From UHGV virus genome UHGV-0073881: a stretch of 64,000 nucleotides of DNA; one strand, 5' to 3'. The position numbers and the translations under genes are program-made. The notes beneath the pieces were generated by a model. That model was not told the DNA's origin. It saw only the letters and a list, made by a program, of their open reading frames with translations, and searched no databases. Positions 3,367 to 64,000 of this stretch are shown in pieces; positions within the stretch are counted from its first letter, which is position 1, and every line of letters starts with the position of its first letter. The stretch is from a virus.

Positions 3367-3816
3367 ATGTGTTATACAGGCGACCCCGCCAATAACCCTC
3401 TTGATAGAGTTAGAATTCTCTGCACCGACACTAATAATGATGAAATTCTTATTGAGCAATCGGTGCTAGAGTGGTTCTACCAAGAATCTGGAAAGGATGA
3501 AAAGAAAGCAGCCATCAAAGCTCTTAAATATTTACTCTTTCAAGTAGCCAAGATGGGAGATGAGAAAGTTGGTGGTGTTTATTTACGTAACTCTTCCAGA
3601 TTCAAATCTCTGAAAGCTGTTTATGACGACCTTATTAAAAGCTCTGTTTCAGGACTACCCTATGTAGGTGGTATTAATCAGTGTGATATTAATATGCGTA
3701 GTCAAAATCCTTGCTCTGTCAAGAAATATACTGAATATGGCGATGCTGCAAGATACGAGGGTAGAGATTACTGCAATCGTGTTAATGGCGTATTTGTAAT
3801 TGAGCGAGATGAATAA
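3367..3816 (+). CDS. hypothetical head-tail joining protein
   Basis: 149-aa ORF with RBS AAAGGAGGG; lies between capsid and tail sheath genes. Confidence 0.4.
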   Translation: MCYTGDPANNPLDRVRILCTDTNNDEILIEQSVLEWFYQESGKDEKKAAIKALKYLLFQVAKMGDEKVGGVYLRNSSRFKSLKAVYDDLIKSSVSGLPYVGGINQCDINMRSQNPCSVKKYTEYGDAARYEGRDYCNRVNGVFVIERDE

Positions 3817-4298
3817 TGGTAAAAAGGGTTATTCACCCCGCTAGAGCTAAATTAGTCGGGGCTATGAAGAACTTGCAAACGGCTAATGCTCAAGTTGGGT
3901 ATTTTCAAGAACAAGGTCAACATAGCTCTGGTTTTTCTTATCCTGCTTTAATGTACTTACACGAAGTTATAGGGGTTCCCTCAGCTTCTGGTAAGGTTTA
4001 TCGTAGGCTGTTTGAAATCACTATGATGCTACACAAACAGACCTTGTTAGAGCAGACTAAGAAGAATCTCTATAAGCAACTAAACAGTCTTACTGTAGAC
4101 CCTTCAAATACCTTGGAAGCATTCGCAAAGAGTGCTCAAGGGGCAATTAAAAGAGGTTTTGGTAATACTGCTATCCTTCCTCCTAACGCACCTTCCACAG
4201 TAGCTAAAAAAGGTTTTAACGCTCCACTTGTGGAAACAGGTGACTTAAGAGAAAACCTTGCTTATAAAATTTCTACTAAAAAGGGCATTAAGAAATGA
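3816..4298 (+). CDS. hypothetical head-tail joining protein
   Basis: 160-aa ORF, start overlaps the upstream stop (translational coupling), between capsid and sheath. Confidence 0.4.
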   Translation: MVKRVIHPARAKLVGAMKNLQTANAQVGYFQEQGQHSSGFSYPALMYLHEVIGVPSASGKVYRRLFEITMMLHKQTLLEQTKKNLYKQLNSLTVDPSNTLEAFAKSAQGAIKRGFGNTAILPPNAPSTVAKKGFNAPLVETGDLRENLAYKISTKKGIKK

Positions 4299-5270: not shown

Positions 5271-6623
5271 ATGTGGAATCCAATTGTTAATGTAGATATT
5301 ACATTGAACACAGCAGGGACTACGAGAGAAGGTTTTGGACTGCCATTATTCTTAGCTTCAACAGATAACTTTGAAGAAAGAATTCGTGGTTATACTTCAC
5401 TAACTGAAGTTGCCGAAGACTTTGATGAAAGTTCTGCTGCATACAAAGCTGCAAAACAGCTATGGAGTCAGACTCCAAAAGTAACTCAACTTTATATTGG
5501 TAGACGTTCTATGCAGTATACCGTTGCTGTTCCTGATGCCGTTGCTGAGAGCACAGAATACTCTCTTACAGTTGCTGTAGGTGGTGGTGTATCTCAGCCA
5601 TTCCAGTACACAGCTAAGGCCGATGATACAGCCCTGATTGTTCTGAATGAATTTAAAACTCAGATTGAAGCAAGCCCTGCTGTTAAAGATGATGTTCAGG
5701 TTAATGTAACAGGTGCTGGTGACTCAGCTACAATGATTATCTCCAAAGCAGGTGATAATGATTTCGTAAAAGTTACCACAACTGGTAAGACTCTTTCAAT
5801 CTCTTCTACGACTGCTGACAGTGCATCAACTGCTCTCTCTGCAATTGAAACGTACTCAACAGATTGGTACTTCATTGCAACAGAAGACAGAACTTCACAG
5901 TTTGTCTTGGCAATGGCATCTGAAATTCAGGCTCGTAAGAAGATTTTCTTCACAGCTAACTCTGATGTGAAAGCTCTACAGGGAACCGACCTAGCTTCTG
6001 CTACAGACGTACCAGCACAGCTTGCTAAATCCAAGTACACTCGTACAGTTTGCTTGTGGCATCACACTGCAAGATACGACTACCCAGAAATGGCTTACAT
6101 TGCTTACGGTGCTCCATATGACGCAGGTTCCATTGCTTGGGGTAACGCTCAGTTGACGGGTGTTGAAACATCTTATCAGCCAGCTAACAAGAGACCTCTG
6201 ACAAGCATTCAGAAATCTGCACTAGATGCACGTAGCTGTAACTTCATTGACCTTGATGGTGGTGTTCCGGTTGTGCGTAGAGGTATCACTTCAGGTGGGG
6301 AATGGATTGATATCGTTCGTGGTGTCGATTGGCTGACTTCTGACTTGAAAACTTCTCTGAGAGACTTGCTAATTAATCAGAAGGGTGGTAAGATTACTTA
6401 TGATGATACTGGTATTACTCGTATTCGTCAAGTCATTGAAACATCTCTTCAGAGAGCGGTTAACAGAAACTTTTTATCATCTTACACCGTTAATGTACCT
6501 AAAGCTTCTCAGGTTTCTTTAGCAGACAAGAAAGCACGTATCCTGAAAGATATTACCTTCCACGGTATTATCGCAGGTGCTATCTTGGATGTTGACCTGA
6601 AAGGTACAGTGGCTTACGAATAA
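5271..6623 (+). CDS. tail sheath protein
   Basis: 450-aa ORF directly followed by a 148-aa tube-sized ORF, a chaperone pair and the tape measure gene, the canonical contractile-tail order. Confidence 0.6.
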   Translation: MWNPIVNVDITLNTAGTTREGFGLPLFLASTDNFEERIRGYTSLTEVAEDFDESSAAYKAAKQLWSQTPKVTQLYIGRRSMQYTVAVPDAVAESTEYSLTVAVGGGVSQPFQYTAKADDTALIVLNEFKTQIEASPAVKDDVQVNVTGAGDSATMIISKAGDNDFVKVTTTGKTLSISSTTADSASTALSAIETYSTDWYFIATEDRTSQFVLAMASEIQARKKIFFTANSDVKALQGTDLASATDVPAQLAKSKYTRTVCLWHHTARYDYPEMAYIAYGAPYDAGSIAWGNAQLTGVETSYQPANKRPLTSIQKSALDARSCNFIDLDGGVPVVRRGITSGGEWIDIVRGVDWLTSDLKTSLRDLLINQKGGKITYDDTGITRIRQVIETSLQRAVNRNFLSSYTVNVPKASQVSLADKKARILKDITFHGIIAGAILDVDLKGTVAYE

Positions 6624-7128: not shown

Positions 7129-7163
7129 GTGTTTTTGTACACCAATAATTTTAAGGAATCACA

Positions 7164-7571
7164 ATGAAGACTCAAACCAAACACATTAATGGAAAGAAAG
7201 TAACTATTATTCTTTTAGGTGCAAGAGAAGGTATTAAAATGTCTATGAAGCTCGGTAAAGTAGTTGTACCGACATTTGCACAGATGCTTTCTAGTTTAAC
7301 TGGAAATAAAGAAGCTGAAGAAGCTCCGAAGGTTCCATTTAAAGAACTTGTAGAAGCTTGCTTTGACAGAATTGATGAGTTGGATATTGACTCAATGGCA
7401 GAATTACTATTTCAGGGGGCAACAGTTGATGACTTCCCACTGAAAGTTGACTCTTACTTCCAAGGAAACTACGGAGAATTTATTGACTTCTTAGCATTTG
7501 CTCTGGAGGCTAATTTCGGAAGTTTTTTCGAGGCAAGCATTTTCAAAAGCCTAACTTCTCAGGAAGCTTAA
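7164..7571 (+). CDS. tail assembly chaperone
   Basis: 135-aa acidic ORF immediately upstream of the tape measure gene; slippery heptamer T_TTT_TTC lies near its 3' end. Confidence 0.55.
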   Translation: MKTQTKHINGKKVTIILLGAREGIKMSMKLGKVVVPTFAQMLSSLTGNKEAEEAPKVPFKELVEACFDRIDELDIDSMAELLFQGATVDDFPLKVDSYFQGNYGEFIDFLAFALEANFGSFFEASIFKSLTSQEA

Positions 7572-7579
7572 GATATGCT

Positions 7580-7807
7580 ATGCAGACCCCACTGACTGAT
7601 GGGGCTGTAGAAGCAACTTATGAAGAAGCAGATGAGATGAAATTTGTGCTTGCTATTTACGGTATGGAAGGGTGCAAAGAAACACTTGACCAACTTTTCT
7701 CTATGTCCTTCACTGACCTACTATCATTACGTCAGTATCTGGAAATCCAGAGGTCATACAAAGAGGAAATTGCTTACAACGAACTTAGAAAGGCAGGTAA
7801 AATTTAA
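7580..7807 (+). CDS. tail assembly chaperone, -1 frame extension (probable frameshift product)
   Basis: the -1 frame opens at 7514 just upstream of slippery site 7523-7529 and runs to the tape measure start codon; an ATG at 7580 with AGGAAG upstream could also serve as an independent start. Confidence 0.4.
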   Translation: MQTPLTDGAVEATYEEADEMKFVLAIYGMEGCKETLDQLFSMSFTDLLSLRQYLEIQRSYKEEIAYNELRKAGKI

Positions 7808-24179: not shown

Positions 24180-24450
24180 GATTTTTTATAAAGCTACTGC
24201 CATCCTTCCATACCTTACCACACAAGACCAAACCATGCCGTACTCCACTTCACAGGACCAAGCATCACTTAAAAATCCTCTTAGAAGACTCTTAAGTGAT
24301 GCAATCGAATTTTAATGTAGCTCCGATTAACTACCCATACCTGACCGAACCTTACCGAGCCTTACCAGACACTACAGAACAGGACCGCACCGCACCTCAT
24401 TAAAAGACCCTCTTTAAAGACCTTTTAATAAGGAGCCTCCGAAGAGGCTA
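24180..24450. repeat. non-coding modular repeat region A
   Basis: no ORF of 60 aa or more; + strand strongly G-poor; shares modules with region B: 11-bp inverted repeat 24262-24302, covarying hairpin 24303-24340, box 24393-24430, short direct repeats CCTTACC and ACCGC; hairpin AGCCTC-CGAA-GAGGCT at 24431-24446. Confidence 0.6.
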
Positions 24451-25559: not shown

Positions 25560-25840
25560 AGAAACTTGGTAGATTTTTAACGTGGCTACTACCATCCACC
25601 CATATCATACCAAACCTGACCAAATCTTACCGCACCCAACATCGCCTAACCTTACCACACCTCATTAAAAGACCCTGTTTAAAGACCTTTTAAAAAGGTA
25701 AGTCTCATTTTAATGTAGCTGAGACTAACTACCCATACTAAACCTCACCGCACCTCACCGAGCCGCGCATTACCAAACCAGACCAAACCTTGCCTCACAT
25801 CACTTAAAAATCCTCTTAGAAGACTCTTAAGTGATGCTGG
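25560..25840. repeat. non-coding modular repeat region B
   Basis: G-poor + strand; same modules as region A in a different order: box 25658-25698, covarying hairpin 25701-25740, inverted repeat 25798-25837, direct repeats CCTCACCG and ACCAAACC. Confidence 0.6.
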
Positions 25841-57123: not shown

Positions 57124-57140
57124 TCAGTAAATTCTTAAAA

Positions 57141-57164
57141 GGGCTGCTTCGGCAGCCTTTTTTA
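57141..57164 (+). terminator. rho-independent terminator
   Basis: GGGCTGC-TTCG-GCAGCC followed by TTTTTT. Confidence 0.65.
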
Positions 57165-57224
57165 TTTGTGATTTGTGCAGAATAGTGTATAATTACCCCT
57201 ATGTTTAATAAAATAGGAGAACCA

Positions 57225-57773
57225 ATGAAGAAATTCATTTTAGGTTTGTGCTTACTTTTTACAGCACAAGTAGCTGTGGCAACTGACTGCCCTGAGTTAA
57301 CTATCAGCCAGAAAGTAAACATGCTTAAAGCTTACAACTATGGCGAAAACAAAATGGGAAAAGGTTGGGGTGTTACACTTGCAGCTATAGCCTTACAAGA
57401 GTCAGAGTTAGGTCTTAACCTAGAAAATAGAAAGACACATGATTATGGCATCTTCCAGAATCACTTGAAGACTGTTGTAAAGCGTAACAAAGTTAACCCT
57501 AATGTAGCTAGGAAGAAGCTTATCAGAGACTTTCAATATGCTGCACAGGAGACTCACAAAGAGCTTGAATTCTGGACTAAGGTACATGGTACACCAAAAG
57601 GAAAGAAGTCTCTTAAGAAGGTATTAGCCTCTTACAATGCAGGGTATAACTACAGTATTCCAAAAGCTAGACAGTACTCTAAAGATGTGTATAATAACAT
57701 GCAAGTGCTTGCTCAATGTGAGTTTGCAACAAACATTCAAAAGGTAAAACATGAACGTATTAAGTCAATCTGA
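57225..57773 (+). CDS. exported lytic transglycosylase-like protein
   Basis: start at ATG 57225 (AGGAGA 5 nt upstream); signal peptide MKKFILGLCLLFTAQVAVA; SLT-like catalytic context IALQESELG ... DYGIFQ. Confidence 0.4.
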   Translation: MKKFILGLCLLFTAQVAVATDCPELTISQKVNMLKAYNYGENKMGKGWGVTLAAIALQESELGLNLENRKTHDYGIFQNHLKTVVKRNKVNPNVARKKLIRDFQYAAQETHKELEFWTKVHGTPKGKKSLKKVLASYNAGYNYSIPKARQYSKDVYNNMQVLAQCEFATNIQKVKHERIKSI

Positions 57774-58446
57774 TAGCGTCCTGTGTCATGCTTATGATAT
57801 TCAACCACTTGACTTAGGTCTTAGTGCAGCAAGCTGGACAGACTGGATGAAGGAAGATTTTGCAGATACTGCAAGGATTGTTGAGTGTGAATTTGAAGAG
57901 TTCCATTCACCAAAAGCTTTTGTCTGTTGTATAGATGTGACCACTGGAAAGGTCGTATCTGTAAAGCGTGATAGTTTGATACTTGTCGCAAAAGAATTTG
58001 ACATTAAACGTAAGATGGTACTCACTGATATTGACGGTGTGCTAACACGATTTGATAAGTCACTGAATGCAACTTACTTGCAAGATGGTACTAAATCACA
58101 GTACACCAATCTGGTTGATTCTGTTCATGCAGAAGCTACTTATGTGTTTAACATCCTGAGAGCTATCTCAAAGAATGCTGATATTGGTGTATTAACTGCT
58201 CGTGGTGATTCACAAAGAATCCCTACTGAGTTGTTTTTAAACGAACATCTTGACAGCATGTACTCACTATTTATGCGAGGATTTGGATGCAATAAGATGA
58301 GTGCAGAAAGTTTGAAAGTTCGTATGATTCAGTCTTGCATTCTCCCATACTATGACGTAGAATGCTTTATAGAAGATACAGTAAGGAATGTGCAGAAGGT
58401 TAACAGAATCCTTCCACATATTAAAACAATGATTGTTAAACACTAA
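57751..58446 (+). CDS. hypothetical protein with HAD-like motif
   Basis: 231 aa; internal LTDIDGVLT resembles HAD phosphatase motif I (DxDGxL). Confidence 0.35.
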   Translation: MNVLSQSDSVLCHAYDIQPLDLGLSAASWTDWMKEDFADTARIVECEFEEFHSPKAFVCCIDVTTGKVVSVKRDSLILVAKEFDIKRKMVLTDIDGVLTRFDKSLNATYLQDGTKSQYTNLVDSVHAEATYVFNILRAISKNADIGVLTARGDSQRIPTELFLNEHLDSMYSLFMRGFGCNKMSAESLKVRMIQSCILPYYDVECFIEDTVRNVQKVNRILPHIKTMIVKH

Positions 58447-58458
58447 GAGAGAGAAATC

Positions 58459-58923
58459 ATGCAAAACATTATCACTGTAGCAATTGATGCAACTGGTAAC
58501 AAATCACAGGTTGTACGTAACATCATCAAGGAAAACTTTGATGGTAAAATATTTCGTGCAGTAAACGTCAAAGCTGACGGAGAAATCCGTGAATATCGTG
58601 CAATGCTTAACGTTACTAAGCATGTCAAAGGTGTTGGTTCAACCACGGCACATAAAGAAAACCTGATGACTATCTATGATATGGGTATGGCTTCAGAGTT
58701 GGGTGCTGAAGGTATTGTAAAGTCTGGTGCTCCGTACCGTTCTTTCAATCTGGAAACTGCTCTTATGCTTTCCTTTACAAGTGGTGCTAAGACTACCACG
58801 TATCTCTTTACCGATGCTGCAACGGTATCGGCTATCAAGGATAGTACTATCAAGGCTGGCGTTTCTGCTGCTGCAAAAGCGTCAACGATGGCTGCAAATG
58901 TCCTTGCTAAAGTCCTCGGTTAA
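58459..58923 (+). CDS. hypothetical protein
   Basis: 154-aa ORF followed by a terminator. Confidence 0.45.
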   Translation: MQNIITVAIDATGNKSQVVRNIIKENFDGKIFRAVNVKADGEIREYRAMLNVTKHVKGVGSTTAHKENLMTIYDMGMASELGAEGIVKSGAPYRSFNLETALMLSFTSGAKTTTYLFTDAATVSAIKDSTIKAGVSAAAKASTMAANVLAKVLG

Positions 58924-58935
58924 GGTTACTATATA

Positions 58936-58956
58936 GGCTCCTTCGGGAGCCTTTTT
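58936..58956 (+). terminator. rho-independent terminator
   Basis: GGCTCC-TTCG-GGAGCC followed by TTTTT. Confidence 0.65.
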
Positions 58957-58974
58957 AAATTTCAAGGAGTACTA

Positions 58975-59859
58975 ATGAAGCCAATGTTCAAATATCTTGG
59001 TGGTAAAACAAGAATACTAAGAGAGTATGAGCGTTTAAATGTTTTTCCAAGCCACTGTAAAAACTTCTATGATTTGTTTTCAGGTGGAGGTTCAGTCGCT
59101 ATTTGGGCTTATAACAGATACCCAGAAGCAAAAATATTTATTAATGAGATAAACAAACACATTATAGGTCTTTACACAACTTTCAGAAATGACTATGAAA
59201 ACTTCATGGAAGAATTTGAGTGCTTGTCAAAGAGGTACTTAGCATTACCTATGCAGGAAGAATATGCTGTGAAAGGTCAGCGACATAAACGTTTACGCTA
59301 TAAAATGTATTACAGTGTAAGGGAGGAACTCCTTTCACTTGGTGAAACAGGTATATATGACTATAGGTACTATGCAAGACAATTTTTCCTTCAAAAACTA
59401 AGTTTTGGTGGTGTATGGCAGACCACTAAAGAAATGAAAGGTCACTACGCAACACCTTGTGGGTATTTGCTGGAAGAAGAGATTTTCTTTACAAAAACTA
59501 AAGAGTCACTATCCGAGTTCTACAGTTTTATCACCGATAAAAGGGTGATACTAAGTAGTGAGCCTTATGATATGGTTGACATAAAACATGGAGAAGGTAC
59601 AGTTATTTACTGTGACCCCCCATATATCAACACCAACCAGAAATATGGTGCAAAGTTTGACATTGAAATGTCTGTAAAACTATGTGAAAATATGATTTCT
59701 TGGGGAGAGTTAGGTTCTAAAGTTTTGATGTCAAACTCTCAGTGGGATGGATGGACAAACTTAATCCCTGAAAATTTTAACTTGACAGAGGTTAGCCATT
59801 CATACACAATACATGCACAGAGAAGCAAGGGTGTTAGCGAAGTAATTATTCATAACTAA
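58975..59859 (+). CDS. dam: DNA N6-adenine methyltransferase (Dam family)
   Basis: 294 aa; SAM-binding FxGxG (FYDLFSGGGS) and catalytic DPPY (VIYCDPPYI). Confidence 0.8.
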   Translation: MKPMFKYLGGKTRILREYERLNVFPSHCKNFYDLFSGGGSVAIWAYNRYPEAKIFINEINKHIIGLYTTFRNDYENFMEEFECLSKRYLALPMQEEYAVKGQRHKRLRYKMYYSVREELLSLGETGIYDYRYYARQFFLQKLSFGGVWQTTKEMKGHYATPCGYLLEEEIFFTKTKESLSEFYSFITDKRVILSSEPYDMVDIKHGEGTVIYCDPPYINTNQKYGAKFDIEMSVKLCENMISWGELGSKVLMSNSQWDGWTNLIPENFNLTEVSHSYTIHAQRSKGVSEVIIHN

Positions 59860-59870
59860 GGTATCAAACC

Positions 59871-60683
59871 ATGACAAACAGTGTAAATGTAGCTCTAAAC
59901 GGTAAGATTGTTAAAATGCAGACTAAGATTATCAGCGTAGAAGACTTTATTAATGAGAAACGCTACAAGGAAAATCCACGTCAACGAAATACATTAAAAC
60001 GACTTAAGAGCAAACACCTTAATGGTGATGTATCACCAGACCAAACAGTTGTCCATATTGCTAAATTCGGTAGTTCACTGTTTATTATTGACGGCCACTC
60101 ACGCAGAGAGGCATGGAAAGTTGGGAACCTTACACGACCAGAAGGATTGATTGCAGTTATATACCATGTAAACTCTATACTAGATGTTACAGATTTGTAC
60201 ACTCACTTTGACTCTGAGTTAGCAAGAGAGAAACCTTCAGAAGTCTATTACGGAAACATGAAGATGATTTCCTTCAATCCAAAGTCAGAGTTGATGAAAG
60301 CATCTTGGGCTACTGCTATTAAGTATGTTGCTGCATACTATGGGGTGCAACAGGTTTCTAACACTGAAACAGTCAATCACCTTGATGACTTTAAAAATGA
60401 GATGGAGCAAATTGACTCTCTTGAAGTACAGCTCAAAGGTGTAGTAAACGCAAAACGTAAGTATTCCTCTGGTATTCGTGCAGCAATGCTAATTACATTA
60501 CGGCTATATGGTGATGCTGCATTCTCCTTCTGGGAGGACTATAATGACTACTGCGAAGGTATGTCTAACAAATATGTTACAGAGGCATACCAACTAGCAT
60601 TGCAAGCTGGTCGTGGAGCACAGGCTGACAAGCTATTGATGAATCAAGTAATTTCACTTGTCAACTACTTCAGCCAAGAGTAG
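59871..60683 (+). CDS. ParB-like nuclease-domain protein
   Basis: 270 aa; segment FIIDGHSRREAWKVG matches the ParB/Srx N-terminal box (hydrophobic-x-DG-x-x-RR-x-A); directly downstream of dam. Confidence 0.45.
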   Translation: MTNSVNVALNGKIVKMQTKIISVEDFINEKRYKENPRQRNTLKRLKSKHLNGDVSPDQTVVHIAKFGSSLFIIDGHSRREAWKVGNLTRPEGLIAVIYHVNSILDVTDLYTHFDSELAREKPSEVYYGNMKMISFNPKSELMKASWATAIKYVAAYYGVQQVSNTETVNHLDDFKNEMEQIDSLEVQLKGVVNAKRKYSSGIRAAMLITLRLYGDAAFSFWEDYNDYCEGMSNKYVTEAYQLALQAGRGAQADKLLMNQVISLVNYFSQE

Positions 60684-60689
60684 TACACA

Positions 60690-60710
60690 GGCTCCAGAAG
60701 GAGCCTTTTT
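60690..60710 (+). terminator. rho-independent terminator
   Basis: GGCTCC-AGAA-GGAGCC followed by TTTTT. Confidence 0.65.
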
Positions 60711-60852
60711 CGTTTATGTAAGGGGTACATTATGATTAAAGTTATCAAGATAATACCATCATTGGTAATGCTCATAGTAGGGGTAGGTATTATACTTATG
60801 CTTTGCCCTGCTTTTTGGCCTTTTATCTTATAATAGTCTAGGAGATTGACAA

Positions 60853-61200
60853 ATGACATTCAAAGAATTTTGTCAAGCAGCTTTTGTAATCATGTTTTTG
60901 TTAGGTGTAGGTGCTTGGGGTGGCTATACTTACAAGACTAGCCAAGTTAACGAGAAAGAGTTGACTAATCAGAAGCTTGTTAGTGTTGCTAAGGATGCTT
61001 ACCAAGAAGGTTTAGCAAATCTTAGCGCTAATTACAAAAATGATTTGAAAGATGTGCTTGCTAAAAACAAACACACAAAAGAGGTATTGACCTATGAAAA
61101 AACTAAGACAGAGTTTTATAATATTTGTGCTACTGAGCCTTATGTCAGGGTGTTCAACCTACAAAGTGAACAATACCTTCAAAAACTCCCAAGTAAGTGA
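60853..61200 (+). CDS. i-spanin-like protein (inner-membrane anchored)
   Basis: 115 aa; N-terminal TM helix AAFVIMFLLGVGAWGG, then charged coiled-coil-like periplasmic domain; its 3' end contains the start of an out-of-frame lipoprotein ORF. Confidence 0.45.
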   Translation: MTFKEFCQAAFVIMFLLGVGAWGGYTYKTSQVNEKELTNQKLVSVAKDAYQEGLANLSANYKNDLKDVLAKNKHTKEVLTYEKTKTEFYNICATEPYVRVFNLQSEQYLQKLPSK

Positions 61201-61363
61201 GAGTGACAAGTACACTCAGGAAGAGACTAGGTACACTGTCAAGGGTACTAAAGGTGAAGACCTTGCTAGTGCTATGGAGTTTTACCGTGATGGATTCTAT
61301 GAATGTACTATCAAGGCAAACAATTTGATTGATATGATTTTGTTAGGGAATAAGCAGCAATGA
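61094..61363 (+). CDS. o-spanin-like lipoprotein
   Basis: 89 aa; signal peptide with lipobox-like LMSGC; start embedded in the upstream gene in another frame with GAGG 9 nt upstream (Rz/Rz1-type overlap). Confidence 0.45.
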   Translation: MKKLRQSFIIFVLLSLMSGCSTYKVNNTFKNSQVSESDKYTQEETRYTVKGTKGEDLASAMEFYRDGFYECTIKANNLIDMILLGNKQQ

Positions 61364-61629
61364 CAGAAAAGAGTGAAACGTTTTATGTAGAAGGTTACTT
61401 ACTTCTTCCAAGACCAAGTAACACTTATATGAGAATTGATTTTTTACCAACTATCATGGATGATGTAATGTGTCACCTGTTTATTCAGGGTATCACAGCA
61501 CAGCTTAAACATGTTGGAAGAGAGTGTAAGATTCGTGTTGACAACCATCCAGAAATCAACGAGAATCACTACATCTTCTTCGGTGAAGATTCTAAAGAAA
61601 TCTACGCAACGTTAAAGACTAGGAAATAA
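61360..61629 (+). CDS. hypothetical protein
   Basis: 89-aa ORF. Confidence 0.4.
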   Translation: MTEKSETFYVEGYLLLPRPSNTYMRIDFLPTIMDDVMCHLFIQGITAQLKHVGRECKIRVDNHPEINENHYIFFGEDSKEIYATLKTRK

Positions 61630-61784
61630 CATGGATAAGCAAAAGCTGCTTGAACTAATTAAAGAGTATGGTGATACTCGCTACAATGTAGCTGGAGAAA
61701 GCTGTCAAGGTTCAATCGATGGTTTAACTTTCTGGGAAGAATCTTCAGAAGCAATCTTACAACAAATTAGAGAGGTTGTAACAA

Positions 61785-62189
61785 ATGGGTGATTGTGCAG
61801 ATGATGCAGACCGTTGGGCTGAGTTGCAAGGGTTAAGACAGGAATTTAGAGAACTACTCAGGGGTTCTTCACAAGCCTATAAAGAGTACAATCAAGAAGA
61901 CTTCCCTAGCAAGCCTTTGTACCTGATTCACCAAAATAATCTCATGAATGTTGGGTACAGCATGGAACAAAGGATGAAGATTTGTGTAATAAGATACTTC
62001 ATTAATGAATCTGCAAAAGTTGGTGATGAAATCATTTGTCCATGCTGCAATTTGAAGTTTAAGAAGAAAACATATCAGCAAAAGTTTTGTGGAGTTAAAA
62101 AGAAAGGTCATTCAAACTGTAAAGATTTCTTTTTCAACTTTACAAACCCAAAACGTTATGAAAGGGTGAAGTTTTTTGTGAGAGGATGA
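61785..62189 (+). CDS. hypothetical zinc-ribbon protein
   Basis: 134 aa; C-terminal CPCCN ... FCG...HSNC. Confidence 0.45.
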   Translation: MGDCADDADRWAELQGLRQEFRELLRGSSQAYKEYNQEDFPSKPLYLIHQNNLMNVGYSMEQRMKICVIRYFINESAKVGDEIICPCCNLKFKKKTYQQKFCGVKKKGHSNCKDFFFNFTNPKRYERVKFFVRG

Positions 62190-62519
62190 TTGATTATGGT
62201 AATTGATGGTAAAACATTTGTAGCTGTCTTCTCAGATAATGAGAAAGATATTGGTGTAGCCCAAGTTACATATGGTAATGGAGAGTTTTTGTATGGTGTG
62301 GTTGCTTTAGTAGGCACAAGAGGTGATACAAAGACCTTCCAAGATTGTGTACATAAGCTTGAAGAATCTGTGAGTAATCATTGGTGTCTTGTGTTTATGA
62401 ACGCTGATGATGTTAAAGAACGATATGCTAAAATTGGCATTGACATTGTTGGTATTGAACATGTAGAGTTGTACCAACTAACTGAAAAGGTGATGTATGA
62501 AAGCAATACTAGTTCGTAG
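62190..62519 (+). CDS. hypothetical protein
   Basis: 109-aa ORF. Confidence 0.4.
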   Translation: MIMVIDGKTFVAVFSDNEKDIGVAQVTYGNGEFLYGVVALVGTRGDTKTFQDCVHKLEESVSNHWCLVFMNADDVKERYAKIGIDIVGIEHVELYQLTEKVMYESNTSS

Positions 62520-62736
62520 TAAAGAAACTCGTGAAGTTTTAGGTGGTGCAATCATTATCCATAAGGATAGGGTTATTCCATTTATGAATCCACTATTACA
62601 TCGTGATTTTAAGAGTGGTAACTTTAAACATTACTTAGATTCAAATTATATATCACAACACACTCTAGAGGTTTATAAAAGGGCTTGGGCTTCTGATGGT
62701 AGAATTTTCTTCCAAGAGGTAGTTTCAAATGGCTGA
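62497..62736 (+). CDS. hypothetical protein
   Basis: 79-aa ORF. Confidence 0.4.
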   Translation: MKAILVRSKETREVLGGAIIIHKDRVIPFMNPLLHRDFKSGNFKHYLDSNYISQHTLEVYKRAWASDGRIFFQEVVSNG

Positions 62737-62929
62737 TTTCTGCAAGAAGTGTGCAATAGAACACTTTGGTGTTGATACAGGAGACTTGAAAGGTCTCTTC
62801 ACCAAAGAAGAATTTGAAGCTGGTTCAGCTATGCCAGTTATCTGTGAAGGTTGTGGTGCATTATACGTAGACCATGAAGGTAACCGTGTAAAACCATCCG
62901 AAGACATGCAACGTTGGGAGCATTATTAA
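62729..62929 (+). CDS. hypothetical zinc-binding protein
   Basis: 66 aa with CKKC ... CEGC cysteine pairs. Confidence 0.4.
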   Translation: MADFCKKCAIEHFGVDTGDLKGLFTKEEFEAGSAMPVICEGCGALYVDHEGNRVKPSEDMQRWEHY

Positions 62930-62930
62930 T

Positions 62931-63722
62931 ATGGGTATTGTAAAAATTATCAAAGGGGATATCTTTGAAGCTTTTGACAATCAGAAGTTTGATATTATTG
63001 GTCACGGTTGCAACTGCATGAATCTTATGGGTGCAGGGATTGCAGCAACAATTGCAAAACGTTACCCAAAAGCTTATGAGACTGACCAAGAAGTCTACAA
63101 CCTGTTTGGTAAAGACCACAAACCAGTAGCTTTAATGCTTGGAAATCTTAGTGTAGCGCGTTTTAAGCAGGGTCGTATTGCTAACCTATACACTCAGTTA
63201 GTTACTGGTAAAGATGCCCGTTACAATGCTTTAGAGGCTGCTTTAGAGCGACTAAACAACTACTGCAAAGTCAATCAGCTTAAGAAGGTTGGCTTACCAA
63301 TGATAGGTGCAGGGATTGGTGGTCTTGATGGTATGGCTGTGCTATCTATCATTAACCAGACCATGAAGGATGTTGATGTTTACATGTACATCTATGAAGA
63401 TAAGATGTTCAAGGAACTGACTAATCCTAAGTCTGGTTGGGAGAATCACAGTGAACCACAATTCTTCGATGGTGTTGCAAAGGTTGAAGAAGATGTAGTT
63501 ACCCTGTGGGTGAAGCGTAAAGGGAAGGTACATAAAAGTAACCCTCCGGTTGAGAAGTATTCTCTAAGTAACGCTCTAGTTACCCACCCGTTGGCAGGGC
63601 ATTGTATGAGAGGTGTAACATTTGGTGATGATGCTAATGTGTATATCCTTGCAAGCAACGACAAAGATGCTGAGGAAGCACTTTCCTGTGAAGTGATTAA
63701 GTTTGTAGAAGCACGTAACTAG
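62931..63722 (+). CDS. macro-domain-like protein (ADP-ribose binding/processing)
   Basis: 263 aa; N-terminal KGDIFEA ... FDIIGHGCNCMNLMGAGIAATIAKRYP and later VGLPMIGAGIGGLD resemble the two glycine-rich loops of macro domains. Confidence 0.45.
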   Translation: MGIVKIIKGDIFEAFDNQKFDIIGHGCNCMNLMGAGIAATIAKRYPKAYETDQEVYNLFGKDHKPVALMLGNLSVARFKQGRIANLYTQLVTGKDARYNALEAALERLNNYCKVNQLKKVGLPMIGAGIGGLDGMAVLSIINQTMKDVDVYMYIYEDKMFKELTNPKSGWENHSEPQFFDGVAKVEEDVVTLWVKRKGKVHKSNPPVEKYSLSNALVTHPLAGHCMRGVTFGDDANVYILASNDKDAEEALSCEVIKFVEARN

Positions 63723-63754
63723 ATAGCTCTGTAGTAATACTCACAATAGCTTTA

Positions 63755-63799
63755 AGCCTTTCTTACTCAAGCATTCAGCAAGGTAAGGAGGGCTTTTTC
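63755..63799 (+). terminator. stem-loop terminator candidate
   Basis: AGCCTTTCTTAC ... GTAAGGAGGGCT (12-bp stem with two G-U pairs, 16-nt loop) followed by TTTTT. Confidence 0.45.
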
Positions 63800-64000
63800 A
63801 TTTCAAAAACGTGCAGGTGTAGTGCTATAGAGAAATCTGTACAGCAATTTCTGAACTCCAAAGAGAAAAATCATTTTAGAATTGTGCAGGTCAACTCCAA
63901 AGAGCTTTTTCATTTTCAATCTGTGCAGATGCAGTTGGACTCCAAAGGGAAAATTCATTTTCAATTTGTGCAGGTAGGTAGCTATAGGAAGCCAGCCCCA
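63793..64000. repeat. array of imperfect direct repeats (unit ~40-45 bp)
   Basis: four copies of TCATTTT(C/A)(A/G)A-N3-4-GTGCAG(G/A)T at 63811, 63884, 63923 and 63968, interleaved with three copies of ACTCCAAAG(A/G)G; non-coding; runs to the window edge. Confidence 0.55.

Follow-up and report, generated by a model that had tools for sequence, protein, structure and literature searches.

What is the function of a set of short direct repeats that stand behind the macro-domain gene of the virus genome UHGV-0073881, at the 3' edge of the 64,000-nt stretch analysed here (hereafter the window, i.e. the whole of that stretch)? The window belongs to a Felix O1-like phage (subfamily Ounavirinae), its final 2 kb matching ~200 such phages, among which Mooglevirus and Suspvirus are nearest with 77-81% nucleotide identity. 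The repeats span 63792-63975 and form an array of four copies of a two-part motif, a fifth copy of which lies over a promoter several kilobases upstream. This layout would suit sites for one DNA-binding protein, a reading which is weighed below against an origin of replication, tandem promoters and further alternatives.

A first-pass annotation of the window had reported at least four direct repeats at its 3' edge, and four are indeed found there. A repeat search returned four copies (63789-63823, 63862-63896, 63901-63935 and 63946-63980) with spacings of 73, 39 and 45 bp, the first unit starting within the T-run of the terminator hairpin of the macro-domain gene. When up to three mismatches are allowed, the 21-nt core TCATTTTCAANNTGTGCAGGT has four matches on both strands of the 64 kb for an expectation of 0.03, and four matches or more were reached in none of 100 shuffled sequences. 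Tandem Repeats Finder missed the array because the spacing of the units is irregular, and the wide 73-bp gap between units 1 and 2 is accounted for by a degenerate short unit lying there (Table 1). The array had also been taken to be cut by the window edge, which proved wrong as the four units, no more and no fewer, stand before a C-rich tract in every array-bearing close relative, including the closest one (L071, a 2.5-kb Logan contig with a macro protein 98% identical, in which the units are followed by CCAGCCCCACCCTCCCCTCTTACTCCCCTCCCTCCCAAAAGTCAAGAG...). As for the sequences said to lead and to follow the units, each stood in part: the leading motif ACTCCAAAGRG is present before units 2-4 (63855, 63894 and 63939) and missing before unit 1, where the 3' arm of the terminator hairpin stands; units 1 and 4 do continue as GTGCAGGT-N-(A/T)GCTATAG in the window, but in relatives this reduces to Y-R-T-A-G-R (TGTAGG, TATAGA, TGCAGG).

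The motif itself can be read directly from a logo of 49 distinct units from 14 phages aligned on GTGCA, namely G (-19), five A/T positions, TCATTT (-13 to -8), seven variable A/T-rich positions and GTGCA (0 to +4), then G/T, R and T. The TCATTT block, the GTGCA block and the G at -19 are invariant, and the flanks and linkers outside -19 to +7 carry little information. A unit is therefore two-part, asymmetric, ~27 bp long and constant in orientation. The A/T tract of a unit is either A5 or T5, and the choice between the two is retained between orthologous units.

The exact core TYATTT-N7-GTGCA occurs exactly five times in the window, both strands considered, for an expectation of 0.16: in the four units and at 57162-57179. 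The complete 87-kb genome of UAB_Phi87 likewise holds five exact cores, at the same two loci. Non-coding DNA makes up ~5% of the window, and all five of its intergenic GTGCAG copies have the upstream half-site at equal distance. The link drawn by the first-pass annotation between the repeats and 57171-57193 was thus right, and it extends further, to the full two-part core, and matters more than first thought; the search for the motif beyond this region, which it had proposed, brought up the extra copy at 57162-57179 but none upstream of other genes, in the window and in UAB_Phi87 alike. The solitary fifth unit overlaps the -35 hexamer and the spacer of the sigma-70-type promoter at 57166-57193, whereas no array unit overlaps a promoter. 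The 6.5-kb operon 57201-63722 is therefore bracketed, with the four-unit array at one end and the fifth site, over the promoter, at the other. Felixounavirus, Mooglevirus and Suspvirus all retain the fifth site, in which TGTGCAG never changes and the 5 nt flanking it on each side do; in other words, the promoter keeps TTTTTTATTTG, TGTGCAG and TGTATAAT constant across the three genera, both intervening 5-nt stretches being free to vary.

Conservation in relatives, the absence of which had been named beforehand as a possible refutation, is extensive: among 38 distinct arrays collected from GenBank and IMG/VR, unit number, order and spacing are nearly universal. The spacing is 73/39/45 in 21 of them, 75/41/45 in nine (five as four-unit arrays and four where the position weight matrix (PWM) also took the upstream solitary site) and 77/39/45 in one, and a few arrays have three units, some Felixounaviruses among them. 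Further away, four units spaced by 37/37/39, with GTGCAT replacing GTGCAG, occur in the Erwinia Kolesnikviruses (macro protein 42% identical), while an 87-kb contig (L067, macro protein 36% identical) has four units mixing GTGCAG, GTGCAT and GTGCTT. Five units are found in L034, an unclassified 88-kb phage whose macro protein is ~36-42% identical to that of the window and to which no isolate was close in the phage collection searched; on its reverse strand (~5606-5770 in reverse-complement coordinates), a very AT-rich stretch of ~190 bp containing some ten TTAACA repeats comes after this array. The array is missing from two distant contigs, L068 (macro protein 46% identical) and L069 (37%), in which an early-type TTGACA promoter comes directly after the macro gene. 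Where the array and the adjacent macro gene were compared for nucleotide identity, the array was higher in all four comparisons (78.7 vs 72.9, 77.0 vs 74.0, 84.9 vs 79.8 and 66.3 vs 61.2%). Between L071 and the window, the linker between units 3 and 4 (63920-63950) is exchanged for the Felixounavirus-type AAAAAATCAAGGTCGGGCAAG, with the cores unchanged and the remaining array nearly identical, which indicates a recombination joint inside the array. Outside the family, pattern scans of IMG/VR for arrays in other phage groups retrieved only Ounavirinae-like contigs, coding tandem repeats and chance matches, and no host or plasmid counterpart matched in 5,426 E. coli genomes or 72,556 plasmids. 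An apparent second locus per record in the BLAST output was rejected, as it consists of off-diagonal matches of unit to unit.

Among the readings considered, an array of sites for a regulator is ranked first and an origin second, because the overlap of the fifth site with a promoter core is the one positive functional clue and points to transcription. We tentatively favour, at somewhat less than an even chance, an operator or boundary array for one putative, probably phage-encoded, DNA-binding protein. The 'activator-binding array' of the first-pass annotation, taken more generally as an array of sites for one such protein, is the best fit to an invariant two-part core with free linkers, as well as to a unit number and spacing that hold across genera and to the position of a fifth site over a promoter; that cores are retained while linkers are exchanged between lineages speaks in its favour too. 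The four units would be docking sites for a single sequence-specific protein, probably encoded by the phage, which may read the TCATTT and GTGCA blocks, 7 bp apart, after a 5-bp A/T tract and a G. From the single site, this protein could control the operon promoter at 57166-57193, and the four-site array would form a boundary between the operon running from the SLT-like to the macro gene and the downstream small early genes, whose promoters are strong and of host type. Its part might be that of a looping anchor with high occupancy or that of a roadblock or insulator behind the terminator. An action on transcription rather than on replication appears most likely to us but is a guess. A close likeness is with the lambda OL/OR operators bound by cI and with the deo and gal operators, where one recognition sequence is also present at two loci a few kilobases apart, one of them over a promoter, in non-coding DNA at operon boundaries. 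Those are, however, palindromic dimer sites with known proteins, whereas the present sites are direct repeats without symmetry, of which four lie away from a promoter, and the binder is putative.

Several observations weigh against such a protein-binding array acting on transcription. Four sites without a promoter of their own are an unusual operator layout, and spacings of 37-77 bp are out of helical phase. Searches of 19 neighbouring gene products (ten upstream and nine downstream) against Pfam and PHROGs revealed no DNA-binding or Rep family, most of them being without assigned function. At position +5, enteric phages have G and Erwinia phages T, yet the L067 genome contains both, and this mixture leaves no clean co-evolution signal for a phage-encoded over a host protein; the co-ordinated change from G to T at +5, once considered as proof of a co-evolving phage protein, is weakened by the GTGCAG, GTGCAT and GTGCTT units standing together in that contig. 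The fifth site is moreover absent in the Erwinia phages, where other genes are inserted after rIIB, so that the bracketing of the operon is not universal. The literature on the family yielded no transcript or binding data.

Table 1. Coordinates of the repeat units and of the associated features in the window, with the sequence and the evidence for each
Feature	Position	Strand	Sequence	Evidence and remarks
Intrinsic terminator hairpin after rIIB	57137..57162	+		T-run is the upstream half of the fifth site; Felix O1 terminator t2
Solitary fifth unit	57156..57182 (core 57162-57179)	+	CCTTTTTTATTTGTGATTTGTGCAGAA	PWM 13.4 bits vs null maximum 12.9; exact core match
Sigma-70-type promoter	57166..57193	+	TTGTGA-N16-TATAAT	Precedes the SLT-like/polynucleotide kinase...macro operon 57201-63722
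Intrinsic terminator hairpin of the macro-domain gene	63754..63795	+	Arms GCCTTTCTTAC / GTAAGGAGGGC	RNA fold; T-run is the start of unit 1
Unit 1	63792..63818	+	GCTTTTTCATTTCAAAAACGTGCAGGT	PWM 37.1 bits
Degenerate short unit	63830..63844	+	GAGAAATCTGTACAG	GTACAG replaces GTGCAG, without TCATTT; relatives here: TCTGTAGAG
Unit 2	63855..63891 (core 63865-63891)	+	5' flank ACTCCAAAGAG; core GAAAAATCATTTTAGAATTGTGCAGGT	PWM 36.0 bits
Unit 3	63894..63930 (core 63904-63930)	+	5' flank ACTCCAAAGAG; core GCTTTTTCATTTTCAATCTGTGCAGAT	PWM 39.6 bits
Unit 4	63939..63975 (core 63949-63975)	+	5' flank ACTCCAAAGGG; core GAAAATTCATTTTCAATTTGTGCAGGT	PWM 40.1 bits
Start of C-rich (polypyrimidine) tract	63991..64000	+	Nearest relative: CCAGCCCCACCCTCCCCTCTTACTCCCCTCCCTCCCAAAAGTCAAGAGAAAAATTTGTAG	Alignment with L071; runs past the window end

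An iteron-type origin, where a phage initiator would bind the four repeats and open nearby DNA, is the rival that survives best, though it remains unlikely. The distant site would then be an autoregulatory operator or a looping partner, and an array accompanied by one distant site is indeed a known iteron layout: in plasmid R6K, the gamma origin with its seven iterons pairs with a single iteron some distance away. Iterons are expected as at least three tandem direct repeats of a site of ~17-22 bp, and the four units, each with a conserved core of 19-27 bp, are such repeats; they are two-part sites of ~19-27 bp in the same orientation, unique in the genome and set within a conserved non-coding region of ~500 bp. 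The likeness with the lambda origin (four O-protein sites) and with the iterons of F, P1 and R6K extends to four two-part sites of ~20 bp in one orientation and to an extra site kilobases away over a promoter. In these systems, however, the spacing is ~22 bp, whereas the present units are separated by an irregular 37-77 bp out of keeping with the ~22-bp phasing typical of iterons, no outstanding AT-rich element is adjacent and no initiator gene was recognised. The very AT-rich stretch of ~190 bp with its TTAACA repeats adjoins the array in L034, but such a striking element after the array is seen in L034 alone. In UAB_Phi87, where the duplex stability was profiled with nearest-neighbour parameters, neither flank of the array figures among the 12 least stable stretches in windows of 60, 100 or 150 bp, and the best unwinding candidate is the divergent region between the polymerase and primase gene blocks, ranked first in the two larger windows and second in the 60-bp one. 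The GC and AT skews track the direction of transcription and do not change sign at the array, and none of the ten upstream and nine downstream products was recognisable as an initiator. Besides, L068 and L069 keep the macro gene and the early promoter but dispense with the array, and three units suffice in some Felixounaviruses. A further point in favour is that the literature searches found no origin reported for this phage family.

Tandem promoters, or the upstream halves of factor-dependent promoters used by the host RNA polymerase, possibly with a phage factor straddling the -35 region, are very unlikely. Lambda cII straddles the -35 region in this way, and at the fifth site the two-part core flanks the -35 hexamer, with TATAAT 7 nt after GTGCAG; in the array, TATAGA or TATAGG follows units 1 and 4 at 9 nt. 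Yet nothing resembling a -10 element is present at units 2 and 3, there is no sigma-70-type site in 63400-64000, and no conserved sigma-70 promoter was found in the array on either strand. Only the solitary site 57166-57193 has -35 and -10 hexamers separated by 16-18 bp in which the second letter of the -10 is A and the sixth is T. The TATAG that follows the units becomes TGTAGG or TGCAGG in relatives, with loss of the A at -11 and of the T at -7, and the motif is upstream of no other gene, be it in the 64-kb window or in the whole 87-kb genome. The 'tandem phage-specific promoters' of the first-pass annotation are thus not supported on four counts, i.e. the lack of a sigma-70-like site, the unconserved TATAG at -10, a family without an RNA polymerase of its own and a motif confined to two loci per genome. 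Promoters of the T7 type fare no better with a motif restricted to two loci and no phage polymerase in Felix O1, which encodes no RNA polymerase of its own (PMC3185647). Neither an RNA polymerase nor a recognised sigma-modifying gene is present in the family (PMC3185647).

A non-functional relic, in which the tail of the terminator would have been tandemly duplicated by recombination between terminator-promoter cassettes, is very improbable. The unit tail CTTTTTCATTT is common to other terminators of the family, e.g. t5 and t13, the flank ACTCCAAAGAG-C resembles the Mooglevirus hairpin arms CCCTCCAAAG...GGAGGGC without their loop, linkers are swapped between lineages, and L068 and L069 have no array. 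In a relic, decay would be expected, yet the cores are invariant where the adjacent protein falls to 36-42% identity, unit number and spacing are maintained, and conservation is higher in the array than in the coding sequence next to it; the units of the Erwinia phages also stand apart from the terminator tail. The PeSL cassettes of T4-type phages have in common with the array short repeats of terminator and promoter pieces, a position bordering a variable group of small early genes and signs of recombination, but they are dispersed between open reading frames (ORFs) and carry working promoters, whereas the present repeats stand in tandem, have no -10 element and keep a fixed number and spacing.

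Regarding host proteins, none of the consensus sequences of IHF, Fis, CRP, Fur, PhoB, the marbox, sigma-54, ops and lambda cII fits the invariant positions, and DnaA alone does so in part. A cluster of host DnaA boxes for titration or recruitment of DnaA, or a DnaA-box-rich injection-stop region as in phage T5, is no less improbable than a relic. On the bottom strand, the GTGCA block is part of TT(A/T)TNCACA, and the 9-mers of the Erwinia phages and of L034 are one or two mismatches away from it: the Erwinia phages have CTATGCACA three times and TTATGCACG once, with a single mismatch each, and L034 has CTATCCACG and CTATGCACA, TTATGCACA being counted as a consensus box in an analysis of the T5 iss region (bioRxiv 10.1101/866236). 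The resemblance of the units is weak, however, as the 9-mers of the window (ACCTGCACG, ACCTGCACA, ATCTGCACA and ACCTGCACA) have two to four mismatches at specified positions. The 'N' position is always C in enteric-phage units, which DnaA does not require, the invariant TCATTT block is left unexplained, and the motif varies between phage lineages although the specificity of DnaA should match in Erwinia and E. coli. The likeness may be due to chance, since it was found after comparing the motif with many host-factor consensus sequences.

The DnaA-like 9-mers nevertheless make the T5 iss region a distant analogue, both elements having conserved untranslated repeats; in T5, these contain DnaA boxes and an injection-stop role was proposed for them in silico (Davison, bioRxiv 10.1101/866236). 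By this analogy, the array could be an entry checkpoint, the genome of Felix O1-like phages being transferred in two steps of which the first would bring in ~25%, which is the least probable of the readings that we graded. From the mapped left end of UAB_Phi87, the order is terminal repeat, tRNAs, small early genes, promoters firing back toward the end, and the array at 22 kb; bound by a protein or at the membrane, the array could stop the DNA from entering further as soon as the early cluster with its promoters is in the cell. Such a checkpoint is compatible with this geometry, with the DnaA-like 9-mers of some lineages and with the T5 precedent. The two elements have in common non-coding repeats that are more conserved than their neighbours, a place at the inner edge of the earliest-expressed genes and DnaA-like 9-mers (clear in the Erwinia phages). 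They differ in that T5 has inverted repeats with paired boxes within a 10-kb terminal repeat, whereas the present repeats are direct and 22 kb away from a terminal repeat of ~0.6 kb, and in that the T5 boxes are consensus ones but those of the window phage have two to four mismatches.

The remaining candidates were rejected. A packaging site or genome end is at odds with an array 22 kb from the mapped terminal repeat (1-542 = 87062-87603 in the UAB_Phi87 record, the termini having been mapped experimentally by Bal31 digestion and run-off sequencing; PMC4837284) and with record breaks that fall in the C-rich tract. Tandem intrinsic terminators fail as only unit 1 follows a real hairpin, units 2-4 having a stem of at most 3 bp. 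A structured RNA is not indicated by a fold z-score of -1.1 on both strands with energies no better than those of shuffled sequences; in Rfam, Mordin (L001) and the Erwinia phage EAP4 (L011) gave no match at E<=1, and the window gave two below-threshold snoRNA matches (E 0.13 and 2.5) lying off the array. A coding ORF, annotated as 'hypothetical protein' in several records, is on differing strands between records, and the 2-bp differences in spacing (73/75/77 and 39/41) break any frame, so that the array is not coding. The intrinsic curvature predicted for the array by a wedge model is average.

The array is, from its sequence, a well-supported new instance of a familiar kind of element, namely the direct-repeat array with presumed protein binding. 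In the GenBank records examined, it is annotated as 'terminator', as 'hypothetical protein' or not at all. The Felix O1 genome paper includes t2 and t13 among its terminators and lists other repeats, without mentioning the array, and states that the temporal control of transcription is unknown (PMC3185647). The literature searched provided no transcription start sites, transcript maps, or report of an origin or iterons for the family and no published description of the array, and the work on terminal repeats provided the mapped termini of UAB_Phi87 and nothing on the array. Felix O1-like phages have a classic use in typing Salmonella and are often considered for phage therapy and biocontrol. 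The array and its partner site are the most clearly selected non-coding element of the region and the only motif found to tie two regulatory loci; the array offers a concrete probe for fishing out the regulator or initiator and a defined target for engineering, e.g. for deregulating or insulating the early gene cluster. Should an origin or an entry checkpoint turn out to be true, a basic gap would be filled for the whole subfamily.

As for the genomic setting, the gene order is identical to that of Felix O1, i.e. rIIA, rIIB, SLT-like gene, polynucleotide kinase, spanins, small ORFs and macro gene. The gene ending at 63722 encodes the macro-domain protein (Pfam PF01661, 30 bits, residues 25-140), which has an additional C-terminal domain of ~110 residues beyond this match. 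The Felix O1 homologue of its terminator is t13, the most stable predicted terminator of that genome with -21.8 kcal/mol (PMC3185647, Table 2). In relatives, the macro gene is followed on its 3' side by ~500 bp of non-coding DNA and then by a series of small early genes. A RegB-like annotation exists for the SLT-like gene. Between a 154-aa ORF and the spanin genes, the window carries at 58975-60683 a D12-class N6-adenine DNA methyltransferase (Pfam PF02086, E 1e-22) and a 270-aa protein without assigned function, Mordin and HY02 having no genes at that position.

The C-rich tract directly after the array is where three GenBank records and two IMG/VR contigs (L015, L016, L002, L021 and L029) end; one of the contigs reads on into a Nextera adapter, and one of the records closes with a fold-back artefact. 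It looks like a recurrent break point of assembly or coverage. The Felixounavirus version of the tract, CCCCTCTCCCCCTCT-TAC-TCCCCCTCTCCCC, forms an almost perfect homopyrimidine mirror repeat, opposite which the other strand has a motif of the G-quadruplex type.

Between the array and the strong early promoter (an UP-like AT tract and TTGACT-N17-TAGTAT), a second conserved TTGACT/TTGATT is present at 5867-5895 of Mordin (L001) and in its homologues; 17 nt on, it is followed by TAKYYG (TATTCG, TAGTCG, TAGTTG, TATGTG), a -10-like hexamer with consistently a final G instead of T. Most small early genes downstream of the array in Mordin are preceded by a box AAYCCTAAACTGGAGAAT that includes the ribosome-binding site (5996-6013, 7162-7179, 7763-7780 and others), is annotated there as 'repeat_region' and is likewise conserved in other genera, possibly as a common signal for translation initiation or RNA processing. 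In EAP4 (L011), the first early promoter and gene start occur twice, 400 bp apart (3607-3815 and 4007-4215), at the end of a 'partial genome' record, which is either a real tandem duplication or an assembly overlap.

Elsewhere in the window, two intergenic gaps of the minus-strand block for replication and nucleotide metabolism (24216-24380 and 25608-25798) contain runs of repeats with a 10-bp period, GGTAAGGCTCGGTAAGGTTCGGTCAGGTATGGGTAG on the coding strand. No credible Rfam match was obtained for these gaps, a single below-threshold xanthine-riboswitch match (E 0.09) lying outside the repeats. Both gaps have the same near-perfect hairpin GCATCACTTAAAAATCCTCT/AGAAGACTCTTAAGTGATGC, at 24262-24302 and 25798-25836, and are thus a duplicated non-coding element.

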